The position numbers and the translations under genes are program-made. Below, piece after piece: positions 5,416 through 55,867 of a stretch of DNA of 64,000 nt (its first letter is position 1; every line of letters begins with the position of its first letter). The stretch comes from Candidatus Woesearchaeota archaeon (GTDB lineage: Archaea > Nanobdellota > Nanobdellia > Pacearchaeales > GW2011-AR1), in NCBI GenBank assembly GCA_964594115.1, contig CAZQLD010000003.1:4225-68224 (forward strand), given 5' to 3'. The notes below the pieces were generated by a model that was given only the letters and a program-made list of their open reading frames with translations, did not search any database and had not been told where the DNA came from.

Positions 5416-8400
5416 TTATTTTTTTAGAATATTAAGAACTTTTTCAAGCATTTCTTTATCTGTATTGCCAATATTCATTATTGTTATTTTTTCTACTTTA
5501 ATATAACCTCCTAAAAAAGTAGTTAGTTCAACAAGTTTGCCTACCCCTTTTAGATAGCCCAGTTCCTTAAGGTCCCCTTCTTCAAGAATCCAACTTCCAT
5601 CTTGAGATCTATTATACCATTTCCCTTTTTCATATTTATAAAGAGACTCTGCATATGGATTTAATTTTTTCATAGAAATAACAACATCCTCTTCTAACAT
5701 ACTATCTGTCCATTCAGTTGTTCCTACTATAATTTTTTCTTCAGGTTTTTCAACAGGATTTTCTGCAGTTTCTGTTCCCCCTTCTGGCACTGGTTTTTCT
5801 GCAGCCCCCCCTCCAGAAGTTATAACTGCTCCTCTGTTGTCACTAGTTTCAGGCTTTATTATTTTAACAATCTCTCCGTATAATCTTCCTAATAACAGAA
5901 ATCCTCTTGCTCTGTGAGAACTACTTGGAGCCAAATAAGCTAATTCATCAAGCTCTTCAACAGTTGTTTTAATTTCATTTTCAATTACTTCTTTTCTAGT
6001 CTCTCCTTTTTTAATTTTCCCAGCTATGTTTTCAATAAACTCTTCAGCATCACTAGCAATCTCTCTGCTTCTTTTAGGAGTCAAATAATCCTTAGCTCCA
6101 ATAACACTTGTATCAACCTCATGAAGAACCTGTGTTTCAATTTCTTTATTTTGAATAACATTCTTAACAGAATCTGTATCTAACCAGCATTTTAATAAGG
6201 GGTCATCACAATAGCCTACCTCTTTCCATCTATCATATGTAGAGTTTGTAGTGTCATACTCCTCTTTTGCACTTACCTGCTTTCCAGGGTTATAAGTAGA
6301 ACACACTCTAACAATCCCCTGATTATACAATTCTGGCTCAGCAAACTCTTCTGCTCCTGCCTGCAAGTTAGGCTGAGCCAATGACAATAAAGAAGGAGTT
6401 CCTGCAACACACTCTCTACTTGTAGTTATCTGCTGCTCAGCTTGTTCTTTTGCATACTGGTCTGAAATATAATTAATTGCAAAGGAAGTTGAAACTTTTC
6501 CAAAATCACACTCATCCTGCCCGTTTATATTCAAACATAATTGCTTATAGCCAGAAGGGGCAATAAAGTCTCTTGCTTCATCTACATGTGCTCCTTTAGC
6601 AAGATATCCTCTATCAACAACATAAGTTTCAGAAGTATAAACATAAACAGAAGCTAGTTCATCAGGAATGTCTTTCAAATAAACAACATAATAAGCTCCT
6701 CTATCGTTTCCAGCATAAATATGGTAATAAACTTTATAATGGGAAGTCGGATAGGGGGTTGCAGTTGTCAAGACATTTTCATCAAACCAAGCATGATACT
6801 GCACTGGAGAATCTGGTTCTGTCAATAAGTCAAAATCAGTAGGATATGTTGTAGAGACAAAACTCTTACAAATTTCAGTTCCAGCTTCTTCAGTTGAACG
6901 GTGAGTAAAGGCCTCCATAGAATTGATGGCATAATCATTCTTAAAATAATCAATTGCACTTTGGGTATTGTCCCAGGCACTCTGGACAGTCAAATATTCT
7001 CCTCCTCCCCTAACACCTTGGCTAAAGAAACTCTCAATTAATCTCGGTATTATAATATCCGCGAAAGGAACTAGTTGCTTCCAAAAGAACTCACATAAGT
7101 AAATACTCTTTATTTCATCACAAATCCCAATATGTCTCCCTGTTTCCAGACTCTCATTTAAACAATCCCTGTGTGCTTTTAAAATAGAAAGATAAGAGTC
7201 AATTCCTGCATGCACTCCTGATAAACAAACAGGAATATAAATCCCTTCTTTAAAATTAGGCAAGCATAAAACCAGGCTTCCAATAATCCCTGTTTGTATT
7301 ACATTATCAACAGGAAACTCTCCTCCTAAATCACATCTTGAAGAAGGACAGATTACAGGATCACAAACATTAAACATTATATTACAATCTGATGGTGACA
7401 TAAAATCAGAACATCTTCCAGCTTCTCCACCAAAAGAAATCCCAGTACTGAATTTTCTGCCATTAATAATTGCATCTTCCTTTCCATAATATCTTGAAGC
7501 TTCTACAAGTGCCTGCTTAGCTCTTCCTACTAGTTCTCTTGATTTTCCTGCATCCATTCCAGGAAAACCTAATTCCTCACTTATTCCATTATAATATCTG
7601 CAAATATCATCTCCTTTTTGTTTAAACTCTATTACTCCATTTCCTCCTACATTACAAATATAATAATTAACTGCTCTTCCAGACTCATCATAAGGCTTGC
7701 CAAAGCCTGATAAAATATACTCCATTTTAACATACCATCCATTATTAACATCAAACGGAACCTCTGCAGGCAACCCTTTATAAGGCGCTCTATCAAAATA
7801 CTTGACTTGCAGTTTTCCAGGATTAGCCATCTTGTTCTCATATGCTTTAGCATTTGACTCTTTAAACTGGGTTGCTTTTTTCAACCCTAAATAGTCTTTA
7901 ACATCTTTATCAATTGCATTATTGGTTTTACCATCAATTGTATAAGCTTTTTCAAAACTGTAAATCCCCTTATCATCCTCTTTAAGTTTAACAATTGTGT
8001 ACGCATTTTTCACATCAGATATTGCTGTAAAACTTGTTGCCTGAAAAGATTCAGAAGCAGGTATAAACACCCTCATAACTTTATTTCCTGTCTTAAGTAT
8101 ATCATCTTCGCTCCCAAAAACAGAATACTTTGTAGAAATATCTGTATTAGTCAAGGTTTTTATATTTGCAAGAGTTATTCTATCTCCATCTAAAAGTGTT
8201 GCCCTAACTCCTAAACCCTTATTTTTTGCTTCTTCTTCAGCAGCAACTCTAGCTTCTTCCCAGTCATGATAATTCTGAGCATTTAAAGCTGTTTTTGCTA
8301 AATCTGTTTTAGTTGCATCTTTTAAAACCTTGCTCGCCCCAGGATTATTTAAGGTGCTATATAAAGTGCTAATATCTTTCATATCTTCAAAACTTCCCCA

Positions 8401-11151
8401 TTCACAAAAATCTTTATTAAGATTACCCATAGATTCATCTCCTTTTTTTGGGAGCTCTATATTCCCCCAAGTATAACACTCTTTTCTAATCTCCTCTTTA
8501 AATCTTCTTTCCATTTCCAGTCTATCAGTAACCTGTCCTTCAAAATCCAAAATATTAGTATTATTTACTAGCCCTTGTCTTGCTTGCTCTAACTTATCAT
8601 TAGTTTCTTCAATATAATTAGCGTAAATTCCAATATCTTTCTCAATATTAGAATTATGGCCAAGTAAACACTTTTGGACGCTACTATAAACCTCTCCATT
8701 CATAGCCTGCTCTCCACTTGAAACAATTTTCTCACAATAATCATTCCACCCTCCAGCTTTGGTCATAATCTCCTTTCTTGCCAGAGATTTTCCACTAAAT
8801 CCTTCAAACATATTTTTAGCCATTAGAATTGCAGAAGTTGCAAAACAAGCTCCTTTCAGACCTTTTACAACTTTTCCAAGCTTTTCATTGACCTCTCCCC
8901 ACTGCTCTATACTCTCCTGAATATTCACCATCATTTCTTCTGTTTTCTCTGGACTTAACTTTATACCTCTTTTTTCTATACCTATTTTAAAGCTAAAATT
9001 AGCATATGCTCTAGGTCCTCTTACTTCAGAATCTAAAACTAGTTTAGCCTGCTTTTTCATATTAATATTCACAAGCCTGACAGTAATATCTTCAAAAACT
9101 GTTTGTTGATTTTTATCTAAATCTAAGGTAGTAGAGCGGGAAATAAAACCAGCTGTCCCAGAACTAGGTTTTGTAAAGCTTAACTTAACATCATTATCAT
9201 CAATCTCAAGCACTTGTAATGAAGCTTTATCTTTTAAATCTAAAATACCATCTAATCCAACTCTCTCACTTTTTCCATCTATCAACAAATCAACACTCAA
9301 CTCCTCTTCTGTTGGCTTTTTAAAATCAAGCAAGTCAATAAAATGCCCCCTGTCTCTTAAATTAACTACAGCTTTTGCCTCACTCGAATCATATTTCAAA
9401 AGCCTCTGTTTATCACTTTCAGCTTTTCTTGTCCATGCAGAATCAGGATATTCCTTATAAAGCCTACTCAAAAACTCTTCTCTGTCTTCAGACATATTAA
9501 ACTCTTTTGCCAAACTTGCAGCCAGATATAAGGCTTCAGCAGCATACGGCTCAAAATAATCATCATCTATTCTTTTATCATAAGGATAAAAATCAACCAA
9601 ATCCCTATAATTTTTAATTGCCTCTTTATAATATTCATAAGATGGTTCATCTTCTTCCCATTCTTTATTTTTAATCACAGTTACTTCTGATAATTTAATT
9701 TTATAAGTTTTACTTGCCTTAACATCGTTATTATTTATAATATAGCTCCCAATACTGCCCTCTGAATTTCCCTCAATCACTGAAATATACTCTTTTGTCA
9801 TCTTTCTTCCACTATCCCTAACTCTCATTGAATACTCTCTGAGGATTTTATCTTTAATTTTATCTTGTAAAGCACTAAATTCTGAATCAGCGTTTTCTTT
9901 AGTAATAACCTCCTCAACAATAGAATAAACCCCCCTATAAGCAAAGCCTGATTCGCTTCCAGCCCAAGGATCAGAAACAAAAACAGCAAATTCTTTTTTC
10001 TTATCTTCTTTTCCCCAAGTTCCAACATAACCAAGATAAATATTTTCTCCTTCTATAATCTCCTCCCCAATCCTATAATCTACCTGATTGCCATCTATCT
10101 CCAAAGTAATTTTTCCAGGATTTAATCTTAAATCAAACCTGCCATCTTGAACAGAACAGCTTACACTAACTTTCCCACCTCCAGCATAAGCATCAACATC
10201 TTCTATAAGACACTTATTATCTAATATTCTGTCTCCTTTAGCAACCCAAATCTGCTGGTCATCAACTTGTAACAAAGCAGCCTCAACAGGAGCCATAATA
10301 TCCTCTACTTTAACTTTTAATCCTGCTGCACAATAAAAACCTCCCAAATAAATAGGGCTAGAAGTTTCTCCTTTTTTCAGTGTAACAGAAGACATCTTAG
10401 AATCAAAATCCCTATAAACAGAAACACTAACCCTATCACTCTCAATAGATTCTGTCTTAATGTAACCTTTTCCATTCCAAAAACTATATTGTTTATAGTA
10501 TCTTAACCAGTCCTCACTGCTTAATTCAGAAACATAAAAGCTTGTTCTTCCAATTCCTAATGCCCCTTCAACATCATAATCAATCACAGCTGTTAAGTTT
10601 CCACCCACCCAGTCAGGCATATCATCTTCAGAATCTTGTCTTTTTAAATTAACGACAAAATAGCCCATATTATCATCTATAGGTGTATCTGCTAAATCTC
10701 TAGTCTGTCTCAGATCAAATCTTGGAGGAAAGTAGGTTATTCCCGCAACCCCTTCAGGTCTTTCTCCTGGAAATGTAATTGACTTGACTCTTGAAACATC
10801 AATTAAAGGATTTGTCTGTATAAGCATTATTTTACAAAAAACAGGGACATTTCGCTCTTCTAACAAATCAGACCTTACAACAGCTGGCTCACATCCTCCA
10901 GGAGCTACTTGAACAATAAAATCTTGTCTTTCCCTGCAAACCTCTTTATCAAATCCAGGCCAATAAATACTCGGAGAAGTATAATCTACTCCACTAAAAG
11001 AACCTGGGCTATAATATTGTGTATTAATAGAATTTCCTATAACCTGATAATCTCCCACCTGGGCATCTGCAATTGAAAGACTCATAAATATCAAACCCAC
11101 CACTAATACAAAAAACAAACTCTCTGTTTCTATATTTTTATTTAGCGCCAT
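5416..11151 (-). CDS. Giant secreted cysteine-rich protein (1911 aa from the first ATG), function unknown
   Basis: Uninterrupted 5.7-kb ORF. The tracked start 11160 is TTG; the first ATG at 11151 gives MALNKNIETESLFFVLVVGLIFMSLSIADA (signal-like). It starts 1 nt after the stop of the upstream 647-aa ORF. No domain recognised. Confidence 0.75.
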   Translation of the reverse strand: MALNKNIETESLFFVLVVGLIFMSLSIADAQVGDYQVIGNSINTQYYSPGSFSGVDYTSPSIYWPGFDKEVCRERQDFIVQVAPGGCEPAVVRSDLLEERNVPVFCKIMLIQTNPLIDVSRVKSITFPGERPEGVAGITYFPPRFDLRQTRDLADTPIDDNMGYFVVNLKRQDSEDDMPDWVGGNLTAVIDYDVEGALGIGRTSFYVSELSSEDWLRYYKQYSFWNGKGYIKTESIESDRVSVSVYRDFDSKMSSVTLKKGETSSPIYLGGFYCAAGLKVKVEDIMAPVEAALLQVDDQQIWVAKGDRILDNKCLIEDVDAYAGGGKVSVSCSVQDGRFDLRLNPGKITLEIDGNQVDYRIGEEIIEGENIYLGYVGTWGKEDKKKEFAVFVSDPWAGSESGFAYRGVYSIVEEVITKENADSEFSALQDKIKDKILREYSMRVRDSGRKMTKEYISVIEGNSEGSIGSYIINNNDVKASKTYKIKLSEVTVIKNKEWEEDEPSYEYYKEAIKNYRDLVDFYPYDKRIDDDYFEPYAAEALYLAASLAKEFNMSEDREEFLSRLYKEYPDSAWTRKAESDKQRLLKYDSSEAKAVVNLRDRGHFIDLLDFKKPTEEELSVDLLIDGKSERVGLDGILDLKDKASLQVLEIDDNDVKLSFTKPSSGTAGFISRSTTLDLDKNQQTVFEDITVRLVNINMKKQAKLVLDSEVRGPRAYANFSFKIGIEKRGIKLSPEKTEEMMVNIQESIEQWGEVNEKLGKVVKGLKGACFATSAILMAKNMFEGFSGKSLARKEIMTKAGGWNDYCEKIVSSGEQAMNGEVYSSVQKCLLGHNSNIEKDIGIYANYIEETNDKLEQARQGLVNNTNILDFEGQVTDRLEMERRFKEEIRKECYTWGNIELPKKGDESMGNLNKDFCEWGSFEDMKDISTLYSTLNNPGASKVLKDATKTDLAKTALNAQNYHDWEEARVAAEEEAKNKGLGVRATLLDGDRITLANIKTLTNTDISTKYSVFGSEDDILKTGNKVMRVFIPASESFQATSFTAISDVKNAYTIVKLKEDDKGIYSFEKAYTIDGKTNNAIDKDVKDYLGLKKATQFKESNAKAYENKMANPGKLQVKYFDRAPYKGLPAEVPFDVNNGWYVKMEYILSGFGKPYDESGRAVNYYICNVGGNGVIEFKQKGDDICRYYNGISEELGFPGMDAGKSRELVGRAKQALVEASRYYGKEDAIINGRKFSTGISFGGEAGRCSDFMSPSDCNIMFNVCDPVICPSSRCDLGGEFPVDNVIQTGIIGSLVLCLPNFKEGIYIPVCLSGVHAGIDSYLSILKAHRDCLNESLETGRHIGICDEIKSIYLCEFFWKQLVPFADIIIPRLIESFFSQGVRGGGEYLTVQSAWDNTQSAIDYFKNDYAINSMEAFTHRSTEEAGTEICKSFVSTTYPTDFDLLTEPDSPVQYHAWFDENVLTTATPYPTSHYKVYYHIYAGNDRGAYYVVYLKDIPDELASVYVYTSETYVVDRGYLAKGAHVDEARDFIAPSGYKQLCLNINGQDECDFGKVSTSFAINYISDQYAKEQAEQQITTSRECVAGTPSLLSLAQPNLQAGAEEFAEPELYNQGIVRVCSTYNPGKQVSAKEEYDTTNSTYDRWKEVGYCDDPLLKCWLDTDSVKNVIQNKEIETQVLHEVDTSVIGAKDYLTPKRSREIASDAEEFIENIAGKIKKGETRKEVIENEIKTTVEELDELAYLAPSSSHRARGFLLLGRLYGEIVKIIKPETSDNRGAVITSGGGAAEKPVPEGGTETAENPVEKPEEKIIVGTTEWTDSMLEEDVVISMKKLNPYAESLYKYEKGKWYNRSQDGSWILEEGDLKELGYLKGVGKLVELTTFLGGYIKVEKITIMNIGNTDKEMLEKVLNILKK

Positions 11152-11152
11152 T

Positions 11153-13096
11153 TTATCCAAATTCTACGCCCAACTGATTTATTTCAACATTATTATAATT
11201 AATTTGCAAGTCTTCTACATTGTTAGGAACCCCAAAATTTTCTGAATTAATAATTAAATTTCCTGTTTGCAATTCAGATTCAGTAACATAGTGCTTTTGA
11301 GTTCCTCCTCCTGAAACCGCAAAGCTCACAATCTGGTCAGGAATCTCTAATGTGAAACACTTTTTCTCACTCGCTCCAAAAATTCCAAAAATTCCAGATT
11401 TAGGAACATCAACACACTTTTCAGTTAAACTTCCTTGGAGATTAATAATTGAATCAGTATAAACATAAACCTTGATTTCATACTCCCCTTCAGTTAGTTC
11501 AACTTCTTGTTGTTCTGGATAAACTACAGTAACTGTTTCTTCATCTTTGACAAAAGTAAGAACTGCATAGTCTTCTGTCAACTTTTTATATGCTTTCTGA
11601 ACCTCTAAATTAAGTTTATATTTTTTATCTAAAACTATAAATGCTGTACCATTTCTAAGGGTTGAAATTAGATATTTCTGAGATTTATAGCCTTCAGAAC
11701 TTGCTAATATAAATCCATTAACACACTGCGGAAACTCAGAAGTTAAAACAGCATCTCCTCCAAAAATCTCTGTATTTCCAATATAACAGGTTGTGTCAAA
11801 GCACTTAAATTTAATCTGAGCTTCAAGCGGATCTAATTTACTATCATAAGTATAAACACTCATTTCTGTTAGCTTATGCTGACATAATTCTGGAACAACA
11901 TTAGGCAAACCCTCAACATCCAAAGCCTCTCTTGGCTTGTTTTTATCTATAACAACCCCTATTGGAAACTGAAACATCTCTTCAGAATCATAAATCTGTA
12001 TAAGAACAGGATAAGCAACATCATAAACAAAATGATATGGAACATAGCAAAAACCTAAAACACCAAGACCTTCTTGCAAACCAACAGGCTCTGCTAACAA
12101 AATCCCTTCTTCAGAAGGCCAAACCTCTATTTTCATAGGCCAATCTCTTAAATATAAAAAGTTAACACTCTCTCCTTCTCCACCTACATCTTCCCCAATA
12201 TCTTGGACAAAATACTTCCCATCTTTTCCAAGAAAATAATAATTACCTTTAACTTTCATTGCAGGAACATTTGCCTCCAAAGCAGTGACTAAATCTTCTC
12301 TAACATCTTCAACAAGCCAAACTTTTGGAGAGCATCCAATTTCACTTCCATCAACCGGGGCATAAAGCCTTAAAAAATCAACAGCATAATTTTCTAAAAA
12401 CAATTTCTTTTCTTCTTCCTCATAAATCTTCTTTGCAATATCATAAAACCTGCCCAATCTTGAGCTAACAGAAAGCTTATGGCTTGTTTGCCTTCCTGTT
12501 GTCTCACCATAAGAGACTATCAAAGGCATTTCCAAATCTACTTTAATTTCTCTGTCTTTAATCTCTACTTCTGCCTCTGGTTCTCCTGCCTCAACAACAA
12601 ATCCCTGCAGCTCAAAATCTCTAAAACTACACTCTTTTATCCTATCCTCAAGATAGTCTGCCATTTGAACCTGCATTTTTTCCTTACTAGGAACTCGCTC
12701 TTTTGCAATACCATTTCCAGAAACATAATACCAGTAAGGAATACCAAATCCTAAAAAGTCAAGCTGTGAAGAAAAAGGCATATAGTCCGAGCCAGGTTCA
12801 AACTCTGGAAGTTCTAAATAACCTGCCTGACTGCCCATTAACGAAGCTGCAATTTTTGTCTCATCCTCTATACAAGATAAAAAATAATTATAAACAGGAG
12901 CGACCTCACGAGGCAAAACACTAGGCACAATCCTGTCTTTCAGTAAAACATATGCTACAACAGAAGCAACAATTAAGATTGCTATAATTACAAAAACTGT
13001 AACCTGTGAGCGCTTTGATTCAACAACTGTTTTATAATTATTAAAAATAGAAACGCGAGTTCTTCTTTTATTTTTAATTTCAAAATTATTTGCCAT
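11153..13096 (-). CDS. N-terminally anchored 647-aa protein, function unknown, co-transcribed with the giant ORF
   Basis: ATG at 13096. Single TM segment VTVFVIIAILIVASVVAYVLL followed by a large non-hydrophobic domain. Tightly packed between a 45-aa ORF and the giant ORF. Confidence 0.7.
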   Translation of the reverse strand: MANNFEIKNKRRTRVSIFNNYKTVVESKRSQVTVFVIIAILIVASVVAYVLLKDRIVPSVLPREVAPVYNYFLSCIEDETKIAASLMGSQAGYLELPEFEPGSDYMPFSSQLDFLGFGIPYWYYVSGNGIAKERVPSKEKMQVQMADYLEDRIKECSFRDFELQGFVVEAGEPEAEVEIKDREIKVDLEMPLIVSYGETTGRQTSHKLSVSSRLGRFYDIAKKIYEEEEKKLFLENYAVDFLRLYAPVDGSEIGCSPKVWLVEDVREDLVTALEANVPAMKVKGNYYFLGKDGKYFVQDIGEDVGGEGESVNFLYLRDWPMKIEVWPSEEGILLAEPVGLQEGLGVLGFCYVPYHFVYDVAYPVLIQIYDSEEMFQFPIGVVIDKNKPREALDVEGLPNVVPELCQHKLTEMSVYTYDSKLDPLEAQIKFKCFDTTCYIGNTEIFGGDAVLTSEFPQCVNGFILASSEGYKSQKYLISTLRNGTAFIVLDKKYKLNLEVQKAYKKLTEDYAVLTFVKDEETVTVVYPEQQEVELTEGEYEIKVYVYTDSIINLQGSLTEKCVDVPKSGIFGIFGASEKKCFTLEIPDQIVSFAVSGGGTQKHYVTESELQTGNLIINSENFGVPNNVEDLQINYNNVEINQLGVEFG

Positions 13097-13693: not shown

Positions 13694-13826
13694 GGTCCTG
13701 TGGTCTAGTGGTTATGACACTTCCTTGACGATGTAAGGAACCTAGGTTCCTTGACAATCATCTTCATAAGATTGTCATAATACATCAAAATGGAAGAGAT
13801 CCCAAGTTCGATTCTTGGCAGGACCA
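13694..13826 (+). tRNA. tRNA-Val (anticodon GAC) with 60-nt intron at 37/38 (intron 13731..13790)
   Basis: Exons give a 73-nt cloverleaf: acceptor GGTCCTG/CAGGACC, anticodon stem CTTCC/GGAAG, T arm CCAAG-TTCGATT-CTTGG. A bulge-helix-bulge is readable: outer TGTA/TACA, bulge CGA, central TTGA/TCAA, bulge AAT. Confidence 0.85.
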
Positions 13827-22092: not shown

Positions 22093-22194
22093 AGCCCCGT
22101 AGTCTAGCGGTCAAGGATGCTGCCCTTTGGTCCAAATCATAAGATTTGCTAAGGCAGAAAGGCAGTGACCCGGGTTCGAATCCTGGCGGGGCTA
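22093..22194 (+). tRNA. tRNA-Gln (anticodon TTG) with ~29-nt intron (about 22131..22159)
   Basis: A1-U72 acceptor AGCCCCG/CGGGGCT (archaeal tRNA-Gln hallmark), anticodon stem CTGCC with loop CTTTGG, 3' strand GGCAG present twice, T arm CCGGG-TTCGAAT-CCTGG. Exact splice sites could not be resolved by eye. Confidence 0.75.
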
Positions 22195-29364: not shown

Positions 29365-29465
29365 GTCCCTATAGTTCAATTGGATAGAACGCGACCTTGC
29401 GGTTGGAAAGAGAAAACTAGGTTTGCAAAAAGGTTGTAATCGGGGTTCAAGTCCTCGTGGGGACA
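29365..29465 (+). tRNA. tRNA-Arg (anticodon GCG) with 28-nt intron at 37/38 (29403..29430)
   Basis: Acceptor GTCCCTA/TGGGGAC, anticodon stem CGACC/GGTTG with loop TTGCGG|..|A. Central helix TTGC/GCAA flanked by 3-nt bulges GGT and AAA. T arm CGGGG-TTCAAGT-CCTCG. Confidence 0.85.
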
Positions 29466-29470
29466 TTCTT

Positions 29471-30457
29471 TCAAACCTCATCCCTTAAGCCATCTGCTGT
29501 AATAAAAAAAACAGTCTCATTTTCCGGCAGATTGGGACTATCAATCATCTTTGCGACTCTGCTGTCTTTCTTGCCTCTTCTTAAATACATCCTGTAAGTT
29601 GAAGCATGCCCTACTATATGCCCTCCTATAGCTGTTGTAGGATCTCCAAACATCAGTGCAGGATTTGCCATAACCTGATTCGTAACATAAATAGCAAGAT
29701 TATACTGTTCTGCCAGTCTCATTAGTGTATGCAAATACCTGTTTAACTTTTGTTGTCTGTCTGCTAACTGCCCTCTTCCAGAAAATTCTGCCCTAAAATG
29801 TGCAGTTAAACTATCAATAACTACTAATTTTATTGGCTCCCCATCTTTAATCATTTCTCCTATCCTATCTATTAATAAAATCTGATGATCTGAGTTTAAA
29901 GCCCTGGCAACAAGTATATTCTTAAGTATTTTTTCAGGATTTGCGCCCATTGCTTCTGCAATCTGCTTTACTCTTTCAGGCCTAAATGTTCCTTCTGTAT
30001 CAATATAAACCGCCTTCCCATTTGCACCACCCATATCTAAAGGCAACTGAACATTTACAGCCAAGCTTAATCCAAGCTGTGTTTTTCCACTGCCATAAGC
30101 TCCAAAACTTTCTGTCATTGACTTTGTTTCTACACCCCTCCCCCCCAGAAGATTGTCTAGATTTTTACTTCCAGTTGTAATATAAAGAACCTCTTCTCTT
30201 TTCTTAGCAAAATCCGTGCCTGTCTGAAATCCAAGTTTCATCATTTTTCTTGCTGCCTGTATAGACTTTCTTGCTACAGCTTCACCAACCCCTGCTAACT
30301 CAGATAATCCAGGAGGAGTCATTACTGCAAGCCCCATCAAATCATAAACTCCAGCAGCTTCCAGCTTTGCAATAGAGCTCGGACCAATTCCAGGCAGGTC
30401 ACTTAACTTATATTCTTTCTCTTCTTTTCCCTCAGCTTTCCCTTTTTTTTCAGCCAT
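29471..30457 (-). CDS. radA: DNA repair and recombination protein RadA
   Basis: N-terminal HhH LSDLPGIGPSSIAKLEAAGV, Walker A FGAYGSGKTQ, Walker B KLVVIDSL, C-terminal GGHIVGHAS. Confidence 0.92.
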   Translation of the reverse strand: MAEKKGKAEGKEEKEYKLSDLPGIGPSSIAKLEAAGVYDLMGLAVMTPPGLSELAGVGEAVARKSIQAARKMMKLGFQTGTDFAKKREEVLYITTGSKNLDNLLGGRGVETKSMTESFGAYGSGKTQLGLSLAVNVQLPLDMGGANGKAVYIDTEGTFRPERVKQIAEAMGANPEKILKNILVARALNSDHQILLIDRIGEMIKDGEPIKLVVIDSLTAHFRAEFSGRGQLADRQQKLNRYLHTLMRLAEQYNLAIYVTNQVMANPALMFGDPTTAIGGHIVGHASTYRMYLRRGKKDSRVAKMIDSPNLPENETVFFITADGLRDEV

Positions 30458-30482
30458 TTTTAGTTCTTTTTTTCCAACTTAA

Positions 30483-30522
30483 TTTCTTTCTTCCTAAGTT
30501 CTTTCTTTTTTAAAGAAAGAAG
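30483..30522 (-). promoter_or_regulatory. Cassette A: 40-nt conserved promoter-like element upstream of radA
   Basis: Sense strand CTTCTTTCTTTAAAAAAGAAAGAACTTAGGAAGAAAGAAA. Inverted repeat TTCTTTC/GAAAGAA around TTTAAAAAA. 39/40 identical to 54865..54904 and 38/40 to 37117..37156. Confidence 0.6.
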
Positions 30523-30599
30523 CTATTTCTAAGAAAAGAAAGCTGTTTTATAAGTTTTACCTTGATTTATTATATATTTCAAAACATATTATAAATTTA

Positions 30600-36726: not shown

Positions 36727-37080
36727 TCACTGAGGTCCAATTGGACTGCATCCCTCGAAGATATCACAAGGTTCAAGCCCCACGTCTAGTCTCTCTAGAG
36801 CTTTACAATTATATTTTGCATCTGTTTTCGGACTTTCTTCACCAAACTTCACTGGCCTCATTCTCTCACAATAATCATTCTTCATGTTTGTTGTACATGC
36901 TACCTGGCATGCCTGAACAACACTATCAATATTACTTCCGCCACCAAAGAAACCAGATATTCGCCCCCATAAATTACCCCAGCCACCTGTAAATCCCAGT
37001 ATAAGCACAACTAAAACCACTAAAGCCAACACTATAATAACAATTGTTCCTATTGTTAATTCAGCACCTTTTTTATTCAT
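36727..37080 (-). CDS. Type IV pilin-like protein, 117 aa, 6-Cys C-terminal domain (major pilin candidate)
   Basis: MNKKG|AELTIGTIVIIVLALVVLVVLILGF class III signal peptide pattern. Own cassette B promoter plus AAAGAGG Shine-Dalgarno. Paralog of 42712..43089. Confidence 0.7.
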   Translation of the reverse strand: MNKKGAELTIGTIVIIVLALVVLVVLILGFTGGWGNLWGRISGFFGGGSNIDSVVQACQVACTTNMKNDYCERMRPVKFGEESPKTDAKYNCKALERLDVGLEPCDIFEGCSPIGPQ

Positions 37081-37116: not shown

Positions 37117-37156
37117 TTTCTTTATTCCTAAGTTCTTTCTTTTTTAAGGAAAGAAG
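37117..37156 (-). promoter_or_regulatory. Cassette B upstream of the 117-aa pilin gene
   Basis: 38/40 identical to cassette A. Lies in the 94-nt gap between 37175 and 37080. Confidence 0.6.
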
Positions 37157-37174
37157 CTATGTTTTTAAAGGTTT

Positions 37175-42711: not shown

Positions 42712-43089
42712 TTAACAGCCTGCATTTCCACAATCTAATTTATCTATTCTGTTTCCGAAAGGTTTCTCAGAGAGCTCATTACAAGTTAGTTTTTGTTCCA
42801 TCATCTTTCCATCTTCTTTATATCTAACCTTTTTTTCTGAACAACAATAATCATAAACCGCATTTTGAGTTGCTAATGTATTGCAACTAGCCACTACAGC
42901 GTCCACATTCGTCTCAACAAACAAACTATTTATAAACTCAGAAAATTTTCCTGTTTGCAACTCCCAAAATACTAATAAGGTTATTAAAACCAATATAGCT
43001 AAAACAATTACAACAAAAGTTCCAATCATTAATTCCGTGTCTTTCTTATCTTTAATAAAAAAACTACTTTTTCTTTTTTTATCATTCAT
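42712..43089 (-). CDS. Type IV pilin-like protein, 125 aa, 6-Cys C-terminal domain (paralog of 36727..37080)
   Basis: ..KDKKDT|ELMIGTFVVIVLAILVLITLLVF. TNVDAVVASCNTLATQNAVYDYCC aligns with SNIDSVVQACQVACTTNMKNDYC of the 117-aa pilin. Confidence 0.65.
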   Translation of the reverse strand: MNDKKRKSSFFIKDKKDTELMIGTFVVIVLAILVLITLLVFWELQTGKFSEFINSLFVETNVDAVVASCNTLATQNAVYDYCCSEKKVRYKEDGKMMEQKLTCNELSEKPFGNRIDKLDCGNAGC

Positions 43090-43104: not shown

Positions 43105-43164
43105 AATTTTCTTTCTTAGTTTTTTCTTTCTAAATGTTTCTTTTTCCTAAAAAAGAAAGTTTGC
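43105..43164 (-). promoter_or_regulatory. Cassette E1: 60-nt conserved element upstream of the 125-aa pilin gene
   Basis: Relative to 55498..55558: 36 identical nt, a 7-8 nt variable block, then 17 identical nt. Shares the TTTCTTTCTTAG / TAAAAAAGAAAG themes with cassettes A-D. Confidence 0.55.
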
Positions 43165-43216
43165 CTCTTTTATATAAAATAAACAAAGAAAATCACTTAA
43201 TAAATATTCTGCTAAT
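43164..43216 (-). repeat. 53-nt repeat, copy 1 (52/53 identical to 48596..48648)
   Basis: CCTCTTTTATATAAAATAAACAAAGAAAATCACTTAATAAATATTCTG(C/T)TAAT. The sense strand carries TTTTATATAAAAGAGG (TATA plus SD-like). Confidence 0.85.
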
Positions 43217-50981: not shown

Positions 50982-51022
50982 TTTCTTTCTTCTTAATGTT
51001 CTTTCTTTTCTAAAGAAAGAAG
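50982..51022 (-). promoter_or_regulatory. Cassette C upstream of the pilus ATPase gene
   Basis: Same architecture as cassette A, with one indel and a few substitutions (TTTCTTTCTTCTTAATGTTCTTTCTTTTCTAAAGAAAGAAG). Confidence 0.55.
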
Positions 51023-51128
51023 TTAGGATATTAAAATCTTGCTATTAACTAAAATCCATAGATAACCTCATTCTCATACAAACAATTTTAAACCCTTGTT
51101 TCTTTATTTTTTTATAAAAAAGAGAAAA

Positions 51129-53788: not shown

Positions 53789-54289
53789 ATGGCAATAGAT
53801 TTTTCATGGATAAGTGAAGGGCTACCTATTTTTGGCTTTGCCCTTATCTTTGTTTTAGTTTATGCTATACTTGCAAAAACAAAGATTTTTGGAAGTAAGT
53901 GGATTAATGCTATAATGGGATTTATTTTTGCTGTTATTTTCTTATCATTTTCTCACGTTAGAGATTATATTGTAAATGCAACTGTCTGGTTCACTGTTCT
54001 TATGACAATATTGTTTTTCTTTTTATTAATAATTGTATTTGTAATTAAAGAACCTGAATCTTTTATGAAACCCCTCACAATAGTCTTTATTGTCTTACTA
54101 GGTTTAATCTTGATTATAACACTTTTCTACTCTTTTCCAAGCACCCAAGCTTATCTTCCAGGGACAAGTGAAGCAGGAGCAAATGATTTTTTACTAAGAA
54201 TAAAACATTTTGTTCTTGGAACAAAATTTCTCAATGGAGCCTTGCTCTTAATAATTGCTATTATAGTAGGATTTCTCATAACAAGATAA
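53789..54289 (+). CDS. Small polytopic membrane protein, paralog family member 1
   Basis: LPIFGFALIFVLVYAILAKTKIFGSKWINAIMGFIFAV shares an N-terminal motif with 54304..54852 and 54946..55455. Confidence 0.55.
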   Translation: MAIDFSWISEGLPIFGFALIFVLVYAILAKTKIFGSKWINAIMGFIFAVIFLSFSHVRDYIVNATVWFTVLMTILFFFLLIIVFVIKEPESFMKPLTIVFIVLLGLILIITLFYSFPSTQAYLPGTSEAGANDFLLRIKHFVLGTKFLNGALLLIIAIIVGFLITR

Positions 54290-54303
54290 TTCTATAAGAA
54301 AAA

Positions 54304-54852
54304 TTAAGTAGTTTTGATTGTGTTCTGCTGACCTTTTGCTGCTAAAACTATCAAAACTATCAAACCTATAACAACTATTCCTACAATTATTGCATTAAGA
54401 TACTCACGCCACCACCAAGCTCCCCATAAAAAGGTTTCATAAGAAGATAAAGCAGATAAAACAACGATTACTGCTATTACCATAGCTATGCTAAAAAAAG
54501 TAATTCTCCACCATCTTTCCTGGCTTGTAAAAAATAGCCCCGTCAGTATTAAACCTACTAAAAGTATTGCTATGCCAATTCCTGCATAAGGAAAAAGGAC
54601 TCGGAAAAAACTACGAAAACCAGGAGAAGTTATAGATAACAAAGCTACAGCCAAAGCAATAACCATATTAATCCCCCTATACTCTCCTATAATCTGTGAT
54701 TTCACTAATATTCCAAAAACAACTGCAAAAACTAATAAAAAGGGAACAACAAACTCAAATACTCCCATATACTCCCAATCCTGCAGAATATCTGCTACAC
54801 TACTTCCTCCCCATGCATAAAATACTGTTAATAAGTTGGACATCACACTCAT
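54304..54852 (-). CDS. Small polytopic membrane protein, paralog family member 2
   Basis: VVPFLLVFAVVFGILVKSQIIGEYRGINMVIALAV. Cassette D promoter with AAAGAGG SD. Confidence 0.55.
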   Translation of the reverse strand: MSVMSNLLTVFYAWGGSSVADILQDWEYMGVFEFVVPFLLVFAVVFGILVKSQIIGEYRGINMVIALAVALLSITSPGFRSFFRVLFPYAGIGIAILLVGLILTGLFFTSQERWWRITFFSIAMVIAVIVVLSALSSYETFLWGAWWWREYLNAIIVGIVVIGLIVLIVLAAKGQQNTIKTT

Positions 54853-54864
54853 TTTTCCTCTTTA

Positions 54865-54904
54865 TTTCTTTCTTCCTAAGTTCTTTCTTTTTTAAAGAAA
54901 GAGG
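54865..54904 (-). promoter_or_regulatory. Cassette D upstream of membrane paralog 2
   Basis: 39/40 identical to cassette A (radA). Ends 12 nt before ATG 54852. Confidence 0.6.
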
Positions 54905-54945
54905 CTATGTTTAAATATGTTTTGGTTCTTTAGCTTTTCTCCCCC

Positions 54946-55455
54946 TTATTCGCTAGAACCCCCGCTTTTTTTCCCAGAAGTAAGAACAATTGCTATAGCT
55001 CCTCCAATTATAGCAATTACTAAAAAATTAATCAGGATTTTTCCAGCATAATCTCTCTCTACTACTGCATTATAGATATAATCCCATGCTCCTGTTATCC
55101 ACAAAACAGCCACTATAACTGCCAAACCAAAAATAATTCCTAAAGCAATTTTTAGTCCTTTATTTAAAACATCTCCTTCTTTTTTAGCACTTATAAAACC
55201 ATAAAGCAGCATAAAAACAAATAAAATAACAAGAGATACAACAAAAAAAGGTATAAGCTTTATGATAATATTTCTTGCAAAAGGAAATCCTATCAAAATT
55301 ATGCCAATAACAAAGCTCATTATAGCATTAATCTGCTTCTTTCCTTCTCCTAGTAGCTTTGTCTTATCAAGAATTGCAAAAACTAAAGTAAAAACTAGTA
55401 AAAACGGCAAGATAATATCAACAAATATTGGGTCTGAAAAGATAGTTTCAACCAT
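54946..55455 (-). CDS. Small polytopic membrane protein, paralog family member 3
   Basis: IILPFLLVFTLVFAILDKTKLLGEGKKQINAIMSFVIGI. Cassette E2 promoter. Confidence 0.55.
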   Translation of the reverse strand: MVETIFSDPIFVDIILPFLLVFTLVFAILDKTKLLGEGKKQINAIMSFVIGIILIGFPFARNIIIKLIPFFVVSLVILFVFMLLYGFISAKKEGDVLNKGLKIALGIIFGLAVIVAVLWITGAWDYIYNAVVERDYAGKILINFLVIAIIGGAIAIVLTSGKKSGGSSE

Positions 55456-55497
55456 TTTCTCTTTTTATTCTAAACTTAAAAGTTTACCTCTTTTATA

Positions 55498-55558
55498 AAT
55501 TTTCTTTCTTAGTTTTTTCTTTCTAAATGTTTCCTTGGTTCTAAAAAAGAAAGTTTGC
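55498..55558 (-). promoter_or_regulatory. Cassette E2 upstream of membrane paralog 3
   Basis: Near-identical to cassette E1 (43105..43164) apart from the central 7-8 nt. Confidence 0.55.
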
Positions 55559-55567
55559 ATCTTTTAT

Positions 55568-55867
55568 TTATAACTCAATTTCTTCTTCTTCTGAAATTTC
55601 TGCTTCTGCTAATTCATCTTGCATAGGAAGACTTGCTTTACTGACAATACAAACATCTCCAATTGCCTTAACAAATTGATGAGGAATCACAACTCCTCTT
55701 GCCCCTCCTAAAAAAGAACCTATGCCTCCTGCAACCTTAATTCTCCAGCTGTCTACTTTGTTCTCAACAAGATTCACTTCTTCTATTTCACCAAAATAAT
55801 CTCCTGAATCTGTATAAACTCTTTTACCTACGACTTCTGATATCTTTTTTATTTTGATTGGCATCAA
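55568..55867 (-). CDS. PRC-barrel domain protein
   Basis: ISEVVGKRVYTDSGDYFGEIEEVNLVENKVDSWRIKV. Acidic tail. Confidence 0.55.
   Translation of the reverse strand: MMPIKIKKISEVVGKRVYTDSGDYFGEIEEVNLVENKVDSWRIKVAGGIGSFLGGARGVVIPHQFVKAIGDVCIVSKASLPMQDELAEAEISEEEEIEL

Follow-up and report, generated by a model that had tools for sequence, protein, structure and literature searches.

A repeated cassette upstream of radA and pilus genes in a DPANN archaeon as a candidate purine-motif intrastrand triplex element

Cassette copies upstream of radA and pilus genes

The DNA stretch analysed here (64,000 nt, hereafter the window), which comes from a salt-marsh metagenome, carries on its minus strand a radA gene preceded by the 40-mer CTTCTTTCTTTAAAAAAGAAAGAACTTAGGAAGAAAGAAA at positions 30483-30522. 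The first-pass annotation had described this cassette as shared by radA, a pilin gene, the pilus ATPase gene and the gene for a membrane-protein paralogue. We confirmed this observation: the 40-mer matched again on the minus strand at 37117-37156 and at 54865-54904, with two mismatches and one mismatch respectively, the copy before the ATPase gene is a fourth near-identical one that is one base longer, and 100 dinucleotide-preserving shuffles of the window did not yield any match to the 40-mer. The cassette ends 25, 36, 21 and 12 nt before the ATG in the four near-identical copies, in agreement with the range of 12-36 nt given earlier. The count of four was correct for near-identical copies, but two more diverged copies on the same strand had been overlooked, which were detected with a covariance model built from the cassette copies. 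None of the six copies in the window lies inside a tRNA gene.

Pfam searches of the downstream genes upheld the identification of RadA (Rad51 family, E 1e-93) and of a T2SSE-type ATPase, whereas the 117-aa product appears to be pilin-like, judging only by its class-III-signal-like N-terminus. Small open reading frames between 37.1 and 43.1 kb have such N-termini too. A Peptidase_A24 prepilin peptidase (Pfam) is encoded close to the cassette-bearing pilus genes. Within the cassette, an inverted repeat and a third, direct GAAAGAA had been pointed out. The inverted repeat is indeed a hairpin, whereas the third block turned out to belong to a 10-nt stretch that mirrors the 3' arm of the hairpin. 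In what follows, Y and R denote the homopyrimidine 5' arm and the homopurine 3' arm of the hairpin, and R' denotes the mirror block. The features of the window are:

30483-30522, minus strand: radA-proximal cassette of the main class, with a C at 30522, the hairpin loop at 30511-30509 and a second loop (loop2) at 30498-30493
30512-30521, minus strand: Y arm of the radA cassette, TTCTTTCTTT, homopyrimidine, Watson-Crick partner of R
30499-30508, minus strand: R arm of the radA cassette, AAAGAAAGAA, homopurine
30483-30492, minus strand: R' block of the radA cassette, AAGAAAGAAA, mirror of R and proposed third (reverse-Hoogsteen) strand
30523-30544, minus strand: stretch AGCTTTCTTTTCTTAGAAATAG, rich in pyrimidines, that separates the cassette from the ancestral radA TATA box, either a half-cassette or the old leader
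30547-30554, minus strand: TATA-like box CTTATAAA conserved 5' of radA, in the window about 90 nt from the ATG
37117-37156, minus strand: cassette before the gene for the 117-aa pilin-like protein, with one C.A mismatch in Y and one G>T change in R'
37162-37169, minus strand: TATA-like box TTTAAAAA of the pilin copy, 6 nt 5' of the Y arm and 5 nt from the first base of the cassette
43111-43169, minus strand: variant-class cassette before the gene for a 125-aa pilin paralogue, with blocks TTTCTTTTT, AAAAAGAAA and AAAGAAAAA at 43121-43158 and nine perfect triplets
50982-51022, minus strand: cassette before the T2SSE pilus ATPase gene, with ten perfect triplets and one additional base in loop2
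51029-51036, minus strand: TATA-like box TTTTAATA of the ATPase copy, 7 nt 5' of the Y arm and kept in the ATPase orthologue loci L013 and L017
54865-54904, minus strand: cassette before the gene for a 182-aa membrane protein (paralogue 2), with nine perfect triplets
54908-54917, minus strand: TATA-like box TATTTAAACA of the paralogue 2 copy, immediately 5' of the cassette
55504-55563, minus strand: degenerate variant-class copy before the gene for a 169-aa membrane protein (paralogue 1), in which the R arm has decayed while Y and R' are intact

We compared the radA site with four RadA orthologue loci (79-87% identity), fetched via the RadA protein so that their sampling is independent of the cassette. 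All four have kept the YdjM-radA neighbourhood and a plain radA promoter, whose conserved box, similar to CTTATAAA, precedes the ATG by about 21 nt, and none carries the cassette before radA. In the window, about 85 extra bases, including the cassette, separate the ancestral TATA box from the ATG. Since the orthologues keep the TATA box and lack the cassette, the radA copy is a lineage-specific gain or insertion. Among population contigs we found no empty-site or deletion variant of the radA site; assemblies break at the repeat. The proteins closest to the RadA of the window carry the annotation Pacearchaeota or Nanoarchaeota. Cassettes were nevertheless present elsewhere in the RadA-anchored loci: a main-class cassette precedes the pilin orthologue in L111, a variant cassette precedes a pilin-like gene in L112, and another variant resides inside a tRNA-Arg(GCG) intron in L114. 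The cassette lends no support to the role in DNA uptake or exchange on which the annotation had speculated, the only related fact being that relatives, too, have radA 4-5 kb away from the pilin cluster.

Mirror repeat and three-way covariation

The order of the blocks, read 5' to 3', is Y (homopyrimidine), a loop of 3-5 nt, R (homopurine), a second loop of 4-11 nt, and R'. In the main class this reads Y TTCTTTCTTT, a loop A-N-A, R AAAGAAAGAA, a C followed by a loop of 4-10 nt, and R' AAGAAAGAAA. A semi-conserved tail, (C/G)TAnAAnAG, comes after R'. This tail was also considered as a TATA box and rejected, the ATG being too close to it in several copies. R' is a mirror image of R, as opposed to a direct repeat, a distinction that can be drawn in the variant classes alone, the main class being nearly self-mirrored. 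Examples of variant classes are:

L053: Y TCTCTTTTCTT, R AAGAAAAGAGA, R' AGAGAAAAGAA
L062, first cassette: Y CTTCTTTTTC, R GAAAAAGAAG, R' GAAGAAAAAG
L062, second cassette: Y CTTTCTTTTC, R GAAAAGAAAG, R' GAAAGAAAAG
L044: Y TCTTCTTTC, R GAAAGAAGA, R' AGAAGAAAG
L114: Y TTTTCTTCTTT, R AAAGAAGAAAA, R' AAAAGAAGAAA
Window, 43121-43158: Y TTTCTTTTT, R AAAAAGAAA, R' AAAGAAAAA

In 11 sequence classes, Y and R are exact reverse complements of each other and R' mirrors R without a mismatch over 8-11 nt. The best direct-repeat score was below the mirror score in all 11 of them. When the same hairpins were read on the opposite strand as a control, mirror matches stayed at background, with at most 8 of 10 positions. 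Across classes Y, R and R' change together, and T-A*A and C-G*G triplets are kept; several classes coexist within one genome. In a model-based alignment 99.7% of hairpin positions were paired, a value to be read knowing that an exact hairpin pattern served to retrieve the main-class loci and makes their hairpin identity true by construction, and that the variant classes and protein-anchored loci are the only ones unbiased for this test. Eight of the nine pairs vary on both sides and none on one side only, although the copies are phylogenetically related and such counts overstate their independence. The pair changes are nearly all between U-A and C-G, the exceptions being two isolated A-U cells. 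G-U wobbles are absent and transversions almost so, which keeps each arm purely pyrimidine or purely purine. In the window, four perfect elements of at least eight triplets were counted, as against none in 100 shuffles.

Taken alone, the hairpin is thermodynamically ordinary as an RNA, with z-scores from -0.3 to -2.6. The connecting loop often reads C(UUCG)G. Additional pairings, in which loop2 would join either the 5' flank or the tail that follows R', were weakly significant in a permutation test (z about 2.6), and we do not claim them; examples are TGA/TCA, TAA/TTA and GAA/TTC, as well as CTTCGG/CCGAAG. We also searched for single-mismatch elements suitable for a wobble-asymmetry test of the folded strand, and none was found.

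Distribution, orientation and tRNA introns

A first scan with the 23-nt hairpin core against one genome per prokaryotic species gave 20 loci. About 13 of them belong to DPANN archaea labelled Woese-, Pace-, Nano- and Micrarchaeota, and in these the hairpin is followed, at a variable distance, by the same purine box. The same hairpin-core pattern retrieved 90 further loci from metagenome contigs. After removal of duplicates, 82 distinct contexts with the full layout were obtained. Matches labelled as bacterial (L003, L005-L009, L012, L014, L021, L047, L049 and L081) lacked a proper R' and were discarded as chance or unrelated hits. Viral contigs gave no matches to the cassette, no Rfam family matched it at gathering or permissive thresholds, and a literature search returned no paper describing the DPANN element.

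At least 20 of the 82 contexts lie inside intron-bearing tRNA genes, and in every case the cassette is on the sense strand of the tRNA. ARAGORN made 18 of these calls and Rfam 12, the latter overlapping the ARAGORN set and including variant-class cassettes. The introns interrupt the anticodon loop and, as judged by eye, the T-loop. In L015, a Micrarchaeota tRNA, two cassettes of different classes occupy one intron of about 230 nt. The pre-tRNA of L004 folds into a cloverleaf and a bulge-helix-bulge (BHB) intron, with two 3-nt bulges flanking a 4-bp helix, and the cassette makes up the distal part of this intron. The tRNA-Arg(GCG) intron, which carries a main-class cassette in L020 and another class in L114, contains in the window (29365-29465) only a remnant resembling R'. 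In a groundwater metatranscriptome, low-depth contigs include the whole cassette, Y included, beside the 3' half of a tRNA, although these may reflect DNA carry-over.

Outside tRNA genes, the start of an open reading frame lies within 120 nt downstream on the same strand in about 35 contexts, versus about three on the opposite strand. Downstream genes encode the pilus ATPase in six contexts (two paralogous types), a membrane protein in four and a pilin in three. The remaining ones look like genes for thermosome, SecD, pelota, NrdR, amidase, tRNA synthetases, ribosomal proteins and others, as read from N-terminal sequences alone. Other genomes likewise have the cassette before pilus ATPase, pilin and membrane-protein genes, and the cassette of the ATPase gene is retained at orthologous sites even though the proteins are only 65-69% identical. 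The check proposed in the annotation, a wider scan for the cassette with a list of the genes downstream, thus disagrees with a regulon linking radA to the pilus genes: besides pilus genes, the 82 contexts bring in unrelated housekeeping genes and tRNA introns. The replication strand is an unlikely cause of the orientation, given that about 90% of copies are co-oriented with the adjacent gene and that all tRNA-intron copies are in sense.

A TATA-like 8-mer ends 3-7 nt 5' of the hairpin in 24 of 52 usable non-tRNA contexts (53 rows minus L078, a slicing artefact with the cassette at the contig start), among them the pilin, ATPase and paralogue 2 copies of the window. Copies of the 'GCCT' and 'TGACT' types adjoin the stop codon of the preceding gene directly. 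The usual archaeal spacing between TATA box and transcription start would place the predicted start in the loop or the R arm of the TATA-adjacent copies. With the box 3-7 nt upstream and the start in the loop or R arm, RNAs made from those copies would lack Y. What had been called a promoter-like element is well described as far as it is non-random, proximal to the 5' end of genes, directed towards the downstream gene and adjacent to promoters, but not as the marker of a regulon. Genes for tRNAs, pilin, thermosome and ribosomal proteins are expected to be highly expressed. The association with such genes would fit an element that raises or buffers expression, and would equally fit insertion into highly transcribed DNA.

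Triplex model, competing explanations and known systems

Our preferred reading is that the cassette is probably one copy of an interspersed DPANN element of about 50 nt, able to form a class II purine-motif intrastrand triplex and acting in cis. A mirror repeat does not arise from templated copying, and in asymmetric classes R' is unable to pair antiparallel with Y; these two points suggest that R' serves as a third strand antiparallel to R. In such a structure the three columns have to change in concert, because the third strand makes T/U-A*A and C-G*G triplets. Y and R would pair as a hairpin, and R' would lie antiparallel to R in the major groove. Single strands on which the fold could form would be the RNA, nascent or processed, and the non-template DNA strand where it is displaced at the promoter or immediately beyond it. 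We infer that the fold may form in vivo and act on its own transcription unit, rather than serve as the operator of a regulator. It might stabilise an opened promoter (bubble) or an R-loop, cause the polymerase to pause ahead of the ribosome-binding site, or block exonucleases as a nuclease-resistant structure, and the outcome would be raised or buffered expression of the downstream cistron. The element can be gained at new sites, the radA copy being one such gain, and its niches are the position just 3' of a TATA box, the position right after a preceding stop codon and the interior of tRNA introns.

That copies are almost all in sense orientation suggests the transcript or else the non-template DNA strand as the folded molecule. 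The copies in tRNA introns and those adjoining stop codons are certainly transcribed whole, which speaks for RNA, and the frequent connecting loop C(UUCG)G, of a kind favoured in RNA, does so too. Against RNA, the predicted starts of the TATA-adjacent copies would leave Y outside the transcript. Where PMC4666352 cites Semerad & Maher, purine-motif triplexes are reported to exclude RNA strands, and a review (PMC7583470) presents the evidence on purine-motif triplexes with RNA as mixed. We put forward only tentatively that the sense transcript folds as Y-R-R'. It would then be a purine-motif (A*A-U / G*G-C) RNA triple helix formed within one molecule, the first such case that is natural and has phylogenetic support, and would be conserved in DPANN archaea in tRNA introns and mRNA leaders as a possible nuclease-resistant or pausing module.

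The main rival of the triplex reading, which we consider rather unlikely, is a miniature mobile repeat (REP/MITE/PATE-like) that is selfish, serves the host in no way and is kept where insertions are harmless. Gain of the radA copy in one lineage between TATA box and ATG is what such a repeat would produce, as are several copies per genome together with tandem and partial modules. Assemblies break at the cassette, xAG is often found at both ends (not significant, by inspection, as a target-site duplication), and E. coli BoxC, too, is a repeat to which no function has been assigned. However, we saw no terminal inverted repeats, no clear target duplication and, on non-systematic inspection, no transposase, and the viral contigs were without matches. 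Near-total sense bias, placement close to 5' ends and a fixed distance to the TATA box all speak against a selfish repeat, as does retention at orthologous sites of proteins with only 65-69% identity. The three-way compensatory changes, moreover, imply purifying selection on the fold.

It is improbable that the cassette is a strong core promoter, in which the loop TTTA(N)AAAA would be the TATA box and transcription would start near GAAAC|TA at the cassette end. The main-class loop is TATA-like, the cassette ends 12-36 nt from the ATGs with Shine-Dalgarno-like sequences in between, and GCCT-type copies adjoining a stop codon have no other TATA-like box nearby. But the central base of the loop varies freely (A/G/C/T), variant-class loops such as CACAG or GCA bear no such resemblance, and the flank 5' of the loop is pyrimidine where a purine-rich BRE would be expected. 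In addition, the distance from the loop to R' varies by 6-7 nt, 24 of the 52 usable contexts have a separate canonical TATA-like box 3-7 nt upstream, and a core promoter makes little sense inside tRNA introns, let alone twice in one L015 intron. The loop TTTAAAAAA, which had been read as a TATA-like box, is thus probably not one, its centre being variable, its variant-class counterparts being of the type CACAG and a better box lying upstream.

We regard as very doubtful a plain RNA hairpin that serves as a 5' or 3' stabiliser or processing site and happens to be followed by an unrelated purine-rich leader. Its perfect 10-bp stem with covariation, its intercistronic or leader position and its frequent C(UUCG)G connecting loop would all suit such a hairpin. 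This explanation nevertheless accounts neither for R' mirroring R in 11 classes nor for changes restricted to T-A and C-G, with no G-U and almost no transversions.

Folding of the antisense strand appears very unlikely. On that strand the order would be Hoogsteen-Y, Y, R, which could form a pyrimidine-motif (U*A-U, C+*G-C) triple helix with a MALAT1/ENE-like order. Every class, when reverse-complemented, gives a perfect class IV motif, which follows directly from the mirror and Watson-Crick relations; the coupling of the complementary strands has been noted (PMC4666352), and pyrimidine-motif RNA triple helices are well established (PMC7583470). With respect to all host tRNAs and about 90% of the adjacent genes, however, this strand is antisense, and an RNA made from it would need a promoter of its own, none of which is evident. 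Weak evidence in the same direction comes from flank G.T wobbles on the sense strand, which become A.C mismatches on the antisense strand.

The operator of a dimeric transcription factor, defining a regulon that couples RadA to the pilus machinery as the annotation had inferred, is extremely unlikely: an inverted repeat with an extra half-site overlaps the promoter or start region of four genes, the link with pilus ATPase, pilin and membrane protein is seen again in other genomes and radA is near the pilin cluster in relatives, but a protein could not read R and its mirror as equivalent sites because the backbone polarity is reversed, the 11 classes differ in G spacing while coexisting in one genome or even one intron, at least 20 copies lie within tRNA introns, unrelated housekeeping genes lie downstream, and radA orthologues are without the cassette. 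Blocks that co-vary by Watson-Crick and mirror rules, with several classes per genome, fit a nucleic-acid fold and not protein half-sites.

On sequence grounds, the element can be placed among the intrastrand-triplex repeats as an archaeal, deeply conserved variant, one that resides in tRNA introns among other places and whose three-way covariation is unusually clear. To our knowledge, neither a function nor evolutionary proof that the fold matters has emerged for bacterial intrastrand triplex repeats in the 25 years since they became known. The archaeal family supplies evolutionary evidence for an intrastrand triplex, in the form of three-column compensatory change in 11 classes, and the formation and action of such triplexes in vivo can now be tested directly. 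If the RNA is what folds, the view that purine-motif triple helices exclude RNA would be overturned; if it is the non-template DNA, a conserved non-B DNA element would be built into archaeal promoters. For annotation, the warning is that upstream motifs shared within DPANN genomes can be structural repeats instead of regulons.

The BoxC/PIT repeats of E. coli were reportedly described as intrastrand triplex repeats by Hoyne & Maher in 2000. The class II purine-motif layout and its type example, E. coli BoxC/PIT/TMECO, are given by Holder et al. 2015 (PMC4666352), with the BoxC consensus CCCTCNCCC-N3-6-GGGNGAGGG-N3-GGGNGAGGG; TMECO is always intergenic, shows no strand bias and has no known function (PMC4666352). 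By its block order, its mirror third block and its all-purine or all-pyrimidine arms, the DPANN element would belong to class II. Both have 5'-Y, loop, R, loop and a reverse-Hoogsteen R-3' on one strand, with stems of 9-11 nt and loops less conserved than the stems, and both are non-coding repeats of unknown function, interspersed in the genome in tens of copies. Their sequences differ: the DPANN element is rich in A/T (TTCTTTCTTT, compared with CCCTCNCCC in BoxC) and has no sequence similarity to BoxC, so that the relation is one of analogy and not of homology. Among archaea the DPANN element is found in several phylum-level groups; its copies are strongly co-oriented with transcription, where TMECO has no strand bias, and, unlike BoxC, it occupies fixed positions (after TATA boxes or stop codons and in tRNA introns) and documents three-way compensatory change by many classes.

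[quoted passage not shown] H-DNA, however, needs the R-R' mirror in a duplex only, whereas the DPANN element has its Y arm on the same strand, which would permit an intrastrand fold; its tracts are short (10 nt) and conserved, while H-DNA/GAA tracts are expandable. The MALAT1/PAN ENE (PMC7583470) also forms an intramolecular major-groove triple helix of about ten triplets, and a comparable protective role in cis is conceivable. The ENE uses the pyrimidine motif, two U-rich strands clamping an A-rich 3' tail (PMC7583470), whereas the sense strand of the DPANN element has one pyrimidine and two purine blocks and an ENE-like order exists on the antisense strand only.

A shared niche also connects the element with archaeal small RNAs, through BHB tRNA introns, intercistronic gaps, UTRs and co-transcription with the host. 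UTRs and tRNA introns harbour archaeal small RNA genes, one of them being that of the box C/D sRNA of the tRNA-Trp intron. The DPANN element, in contrast, has no C/D or H/ACA boxes and no Rfam match, and what is conserved in it is the Y-R-R' triplex code and not a guide. Polypurine reverse-Hoogsteen hairpins (PPRH) are synthetic mirror-repeat purine hairpins that clamp a polypyrimidine target by Watson-Crick pairing. The R-loop-R' part of the DPANN element corresponds to a hairpin of the PPRH type; PPRH are designed and act in trans, whereas the DPANN element is natural and has its target, Y, in cis.

Gene neighbourhoods of the cassettes

Between window positions 29471 and 43089, the gene order is YdjM-radA, an RPA-like OB-fold protein, EF-1beta, an HIT protein, a prepilin peptidase (Peptidase_A24) and then a series of pilin-like ORFs. 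This order, from YdjM-radA to the pilin-like ORFs, was kept in four related genomes (L111-L114), indicating that radA and the pilus cluster are 4-5 kb apart also where radA lacks the cassette. Seven larger ORFs with pilin-like N-termini are flanked in the window by two small paralogous proteins, whose genes each have a separate cassette, of different classes:

36727-37080, minus strand: small pilin-like protein, 117 aa, Cys-rich C-terminus, paralogue of the 125-aa protein
42712-43089, minus strand: small pilin-like protein, 125 aa, Cys-rich C-terminus, paralogue of the 117-aa protein

A cluster encoding a 99-aa protein, then three membrane-protein paralogues, all about 170 aa long, was conserved between the window (53789-55867) and L019, a locus from outside the window (5530-7525). 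The cassette precedes paralogue 2 in both, and no Pfam family was found for the three paralogues.

The ORF of the ATPase orthologue in locus L013 starts about 23 nt downstream of its cassette and encodes 1280 aa, about 520 aa more than the 758-aa protein of the window. Alignment of the two proteins gives two blocks, with 65% and 74% identity, suggesting that the extra length is an insertion, for instance an intein.

Elsewhere in the window, two very large overlapping ORFs together cover 7.7 kb:

5416-11160, minus strand: first ORF, 1914 aa
11153-13096, minus strand: second ORF, 647 aa

Cassettes in a tRNA intron

Rfam detected three intron-containing tRNA genes in the window, none of which (0/3) was called by a default ARAGORN run:

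13694-13826, plus strand: intron-containing tRNA gene
22093-22194, plus strand: intron-containing tRNA gene
29365-29465, plus strand: intron-containing tRNA-Arg(GCG) gene

The tRNA-Arg(GCG) intron contains GGAAAGAGAAAACTAGG, which looks like a cassette remnant made of R' (the mirror of the purine arm R) and the tail. Full cassettes were present in the orthologous intron of L020 and L114.

Assembly behaviour and structural variants

In four sequencing runs of the source community (X1-X3 and X9), contigs ended or changed flanks within the radA cassette (window 30468-30528), where summed depth was about 7x that of the flanks. Assemblies are fragmented by the cassette repeat.

The cassette's 23-nt hairpin was found on bacterial-labelled contigs (L008/L098, L009, L014, L081), followed directly by (C)AAAGAAA(G/A), with no proper loop or mirror block after it; these matches could be due to chance or represent a distant relative. 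In L023 and L057/L087/L102, the main hairpin is directly preceded by another, shorter pyrimidine-purine hairpin, of which GTTTCTTTTTCACAAAGAAC is an example, and a similar, degenerate hairpin lies upstream of the cassette in the Micrarchaeota copies L001, L015 and L016. Downstream of the main cassette, L026, L039, L044 and L060 carry additional tandem 'loop2 - R' - CTAAG' modules or, in L039, whole R-R' units, indicating that the third-strand block can be multiplied.
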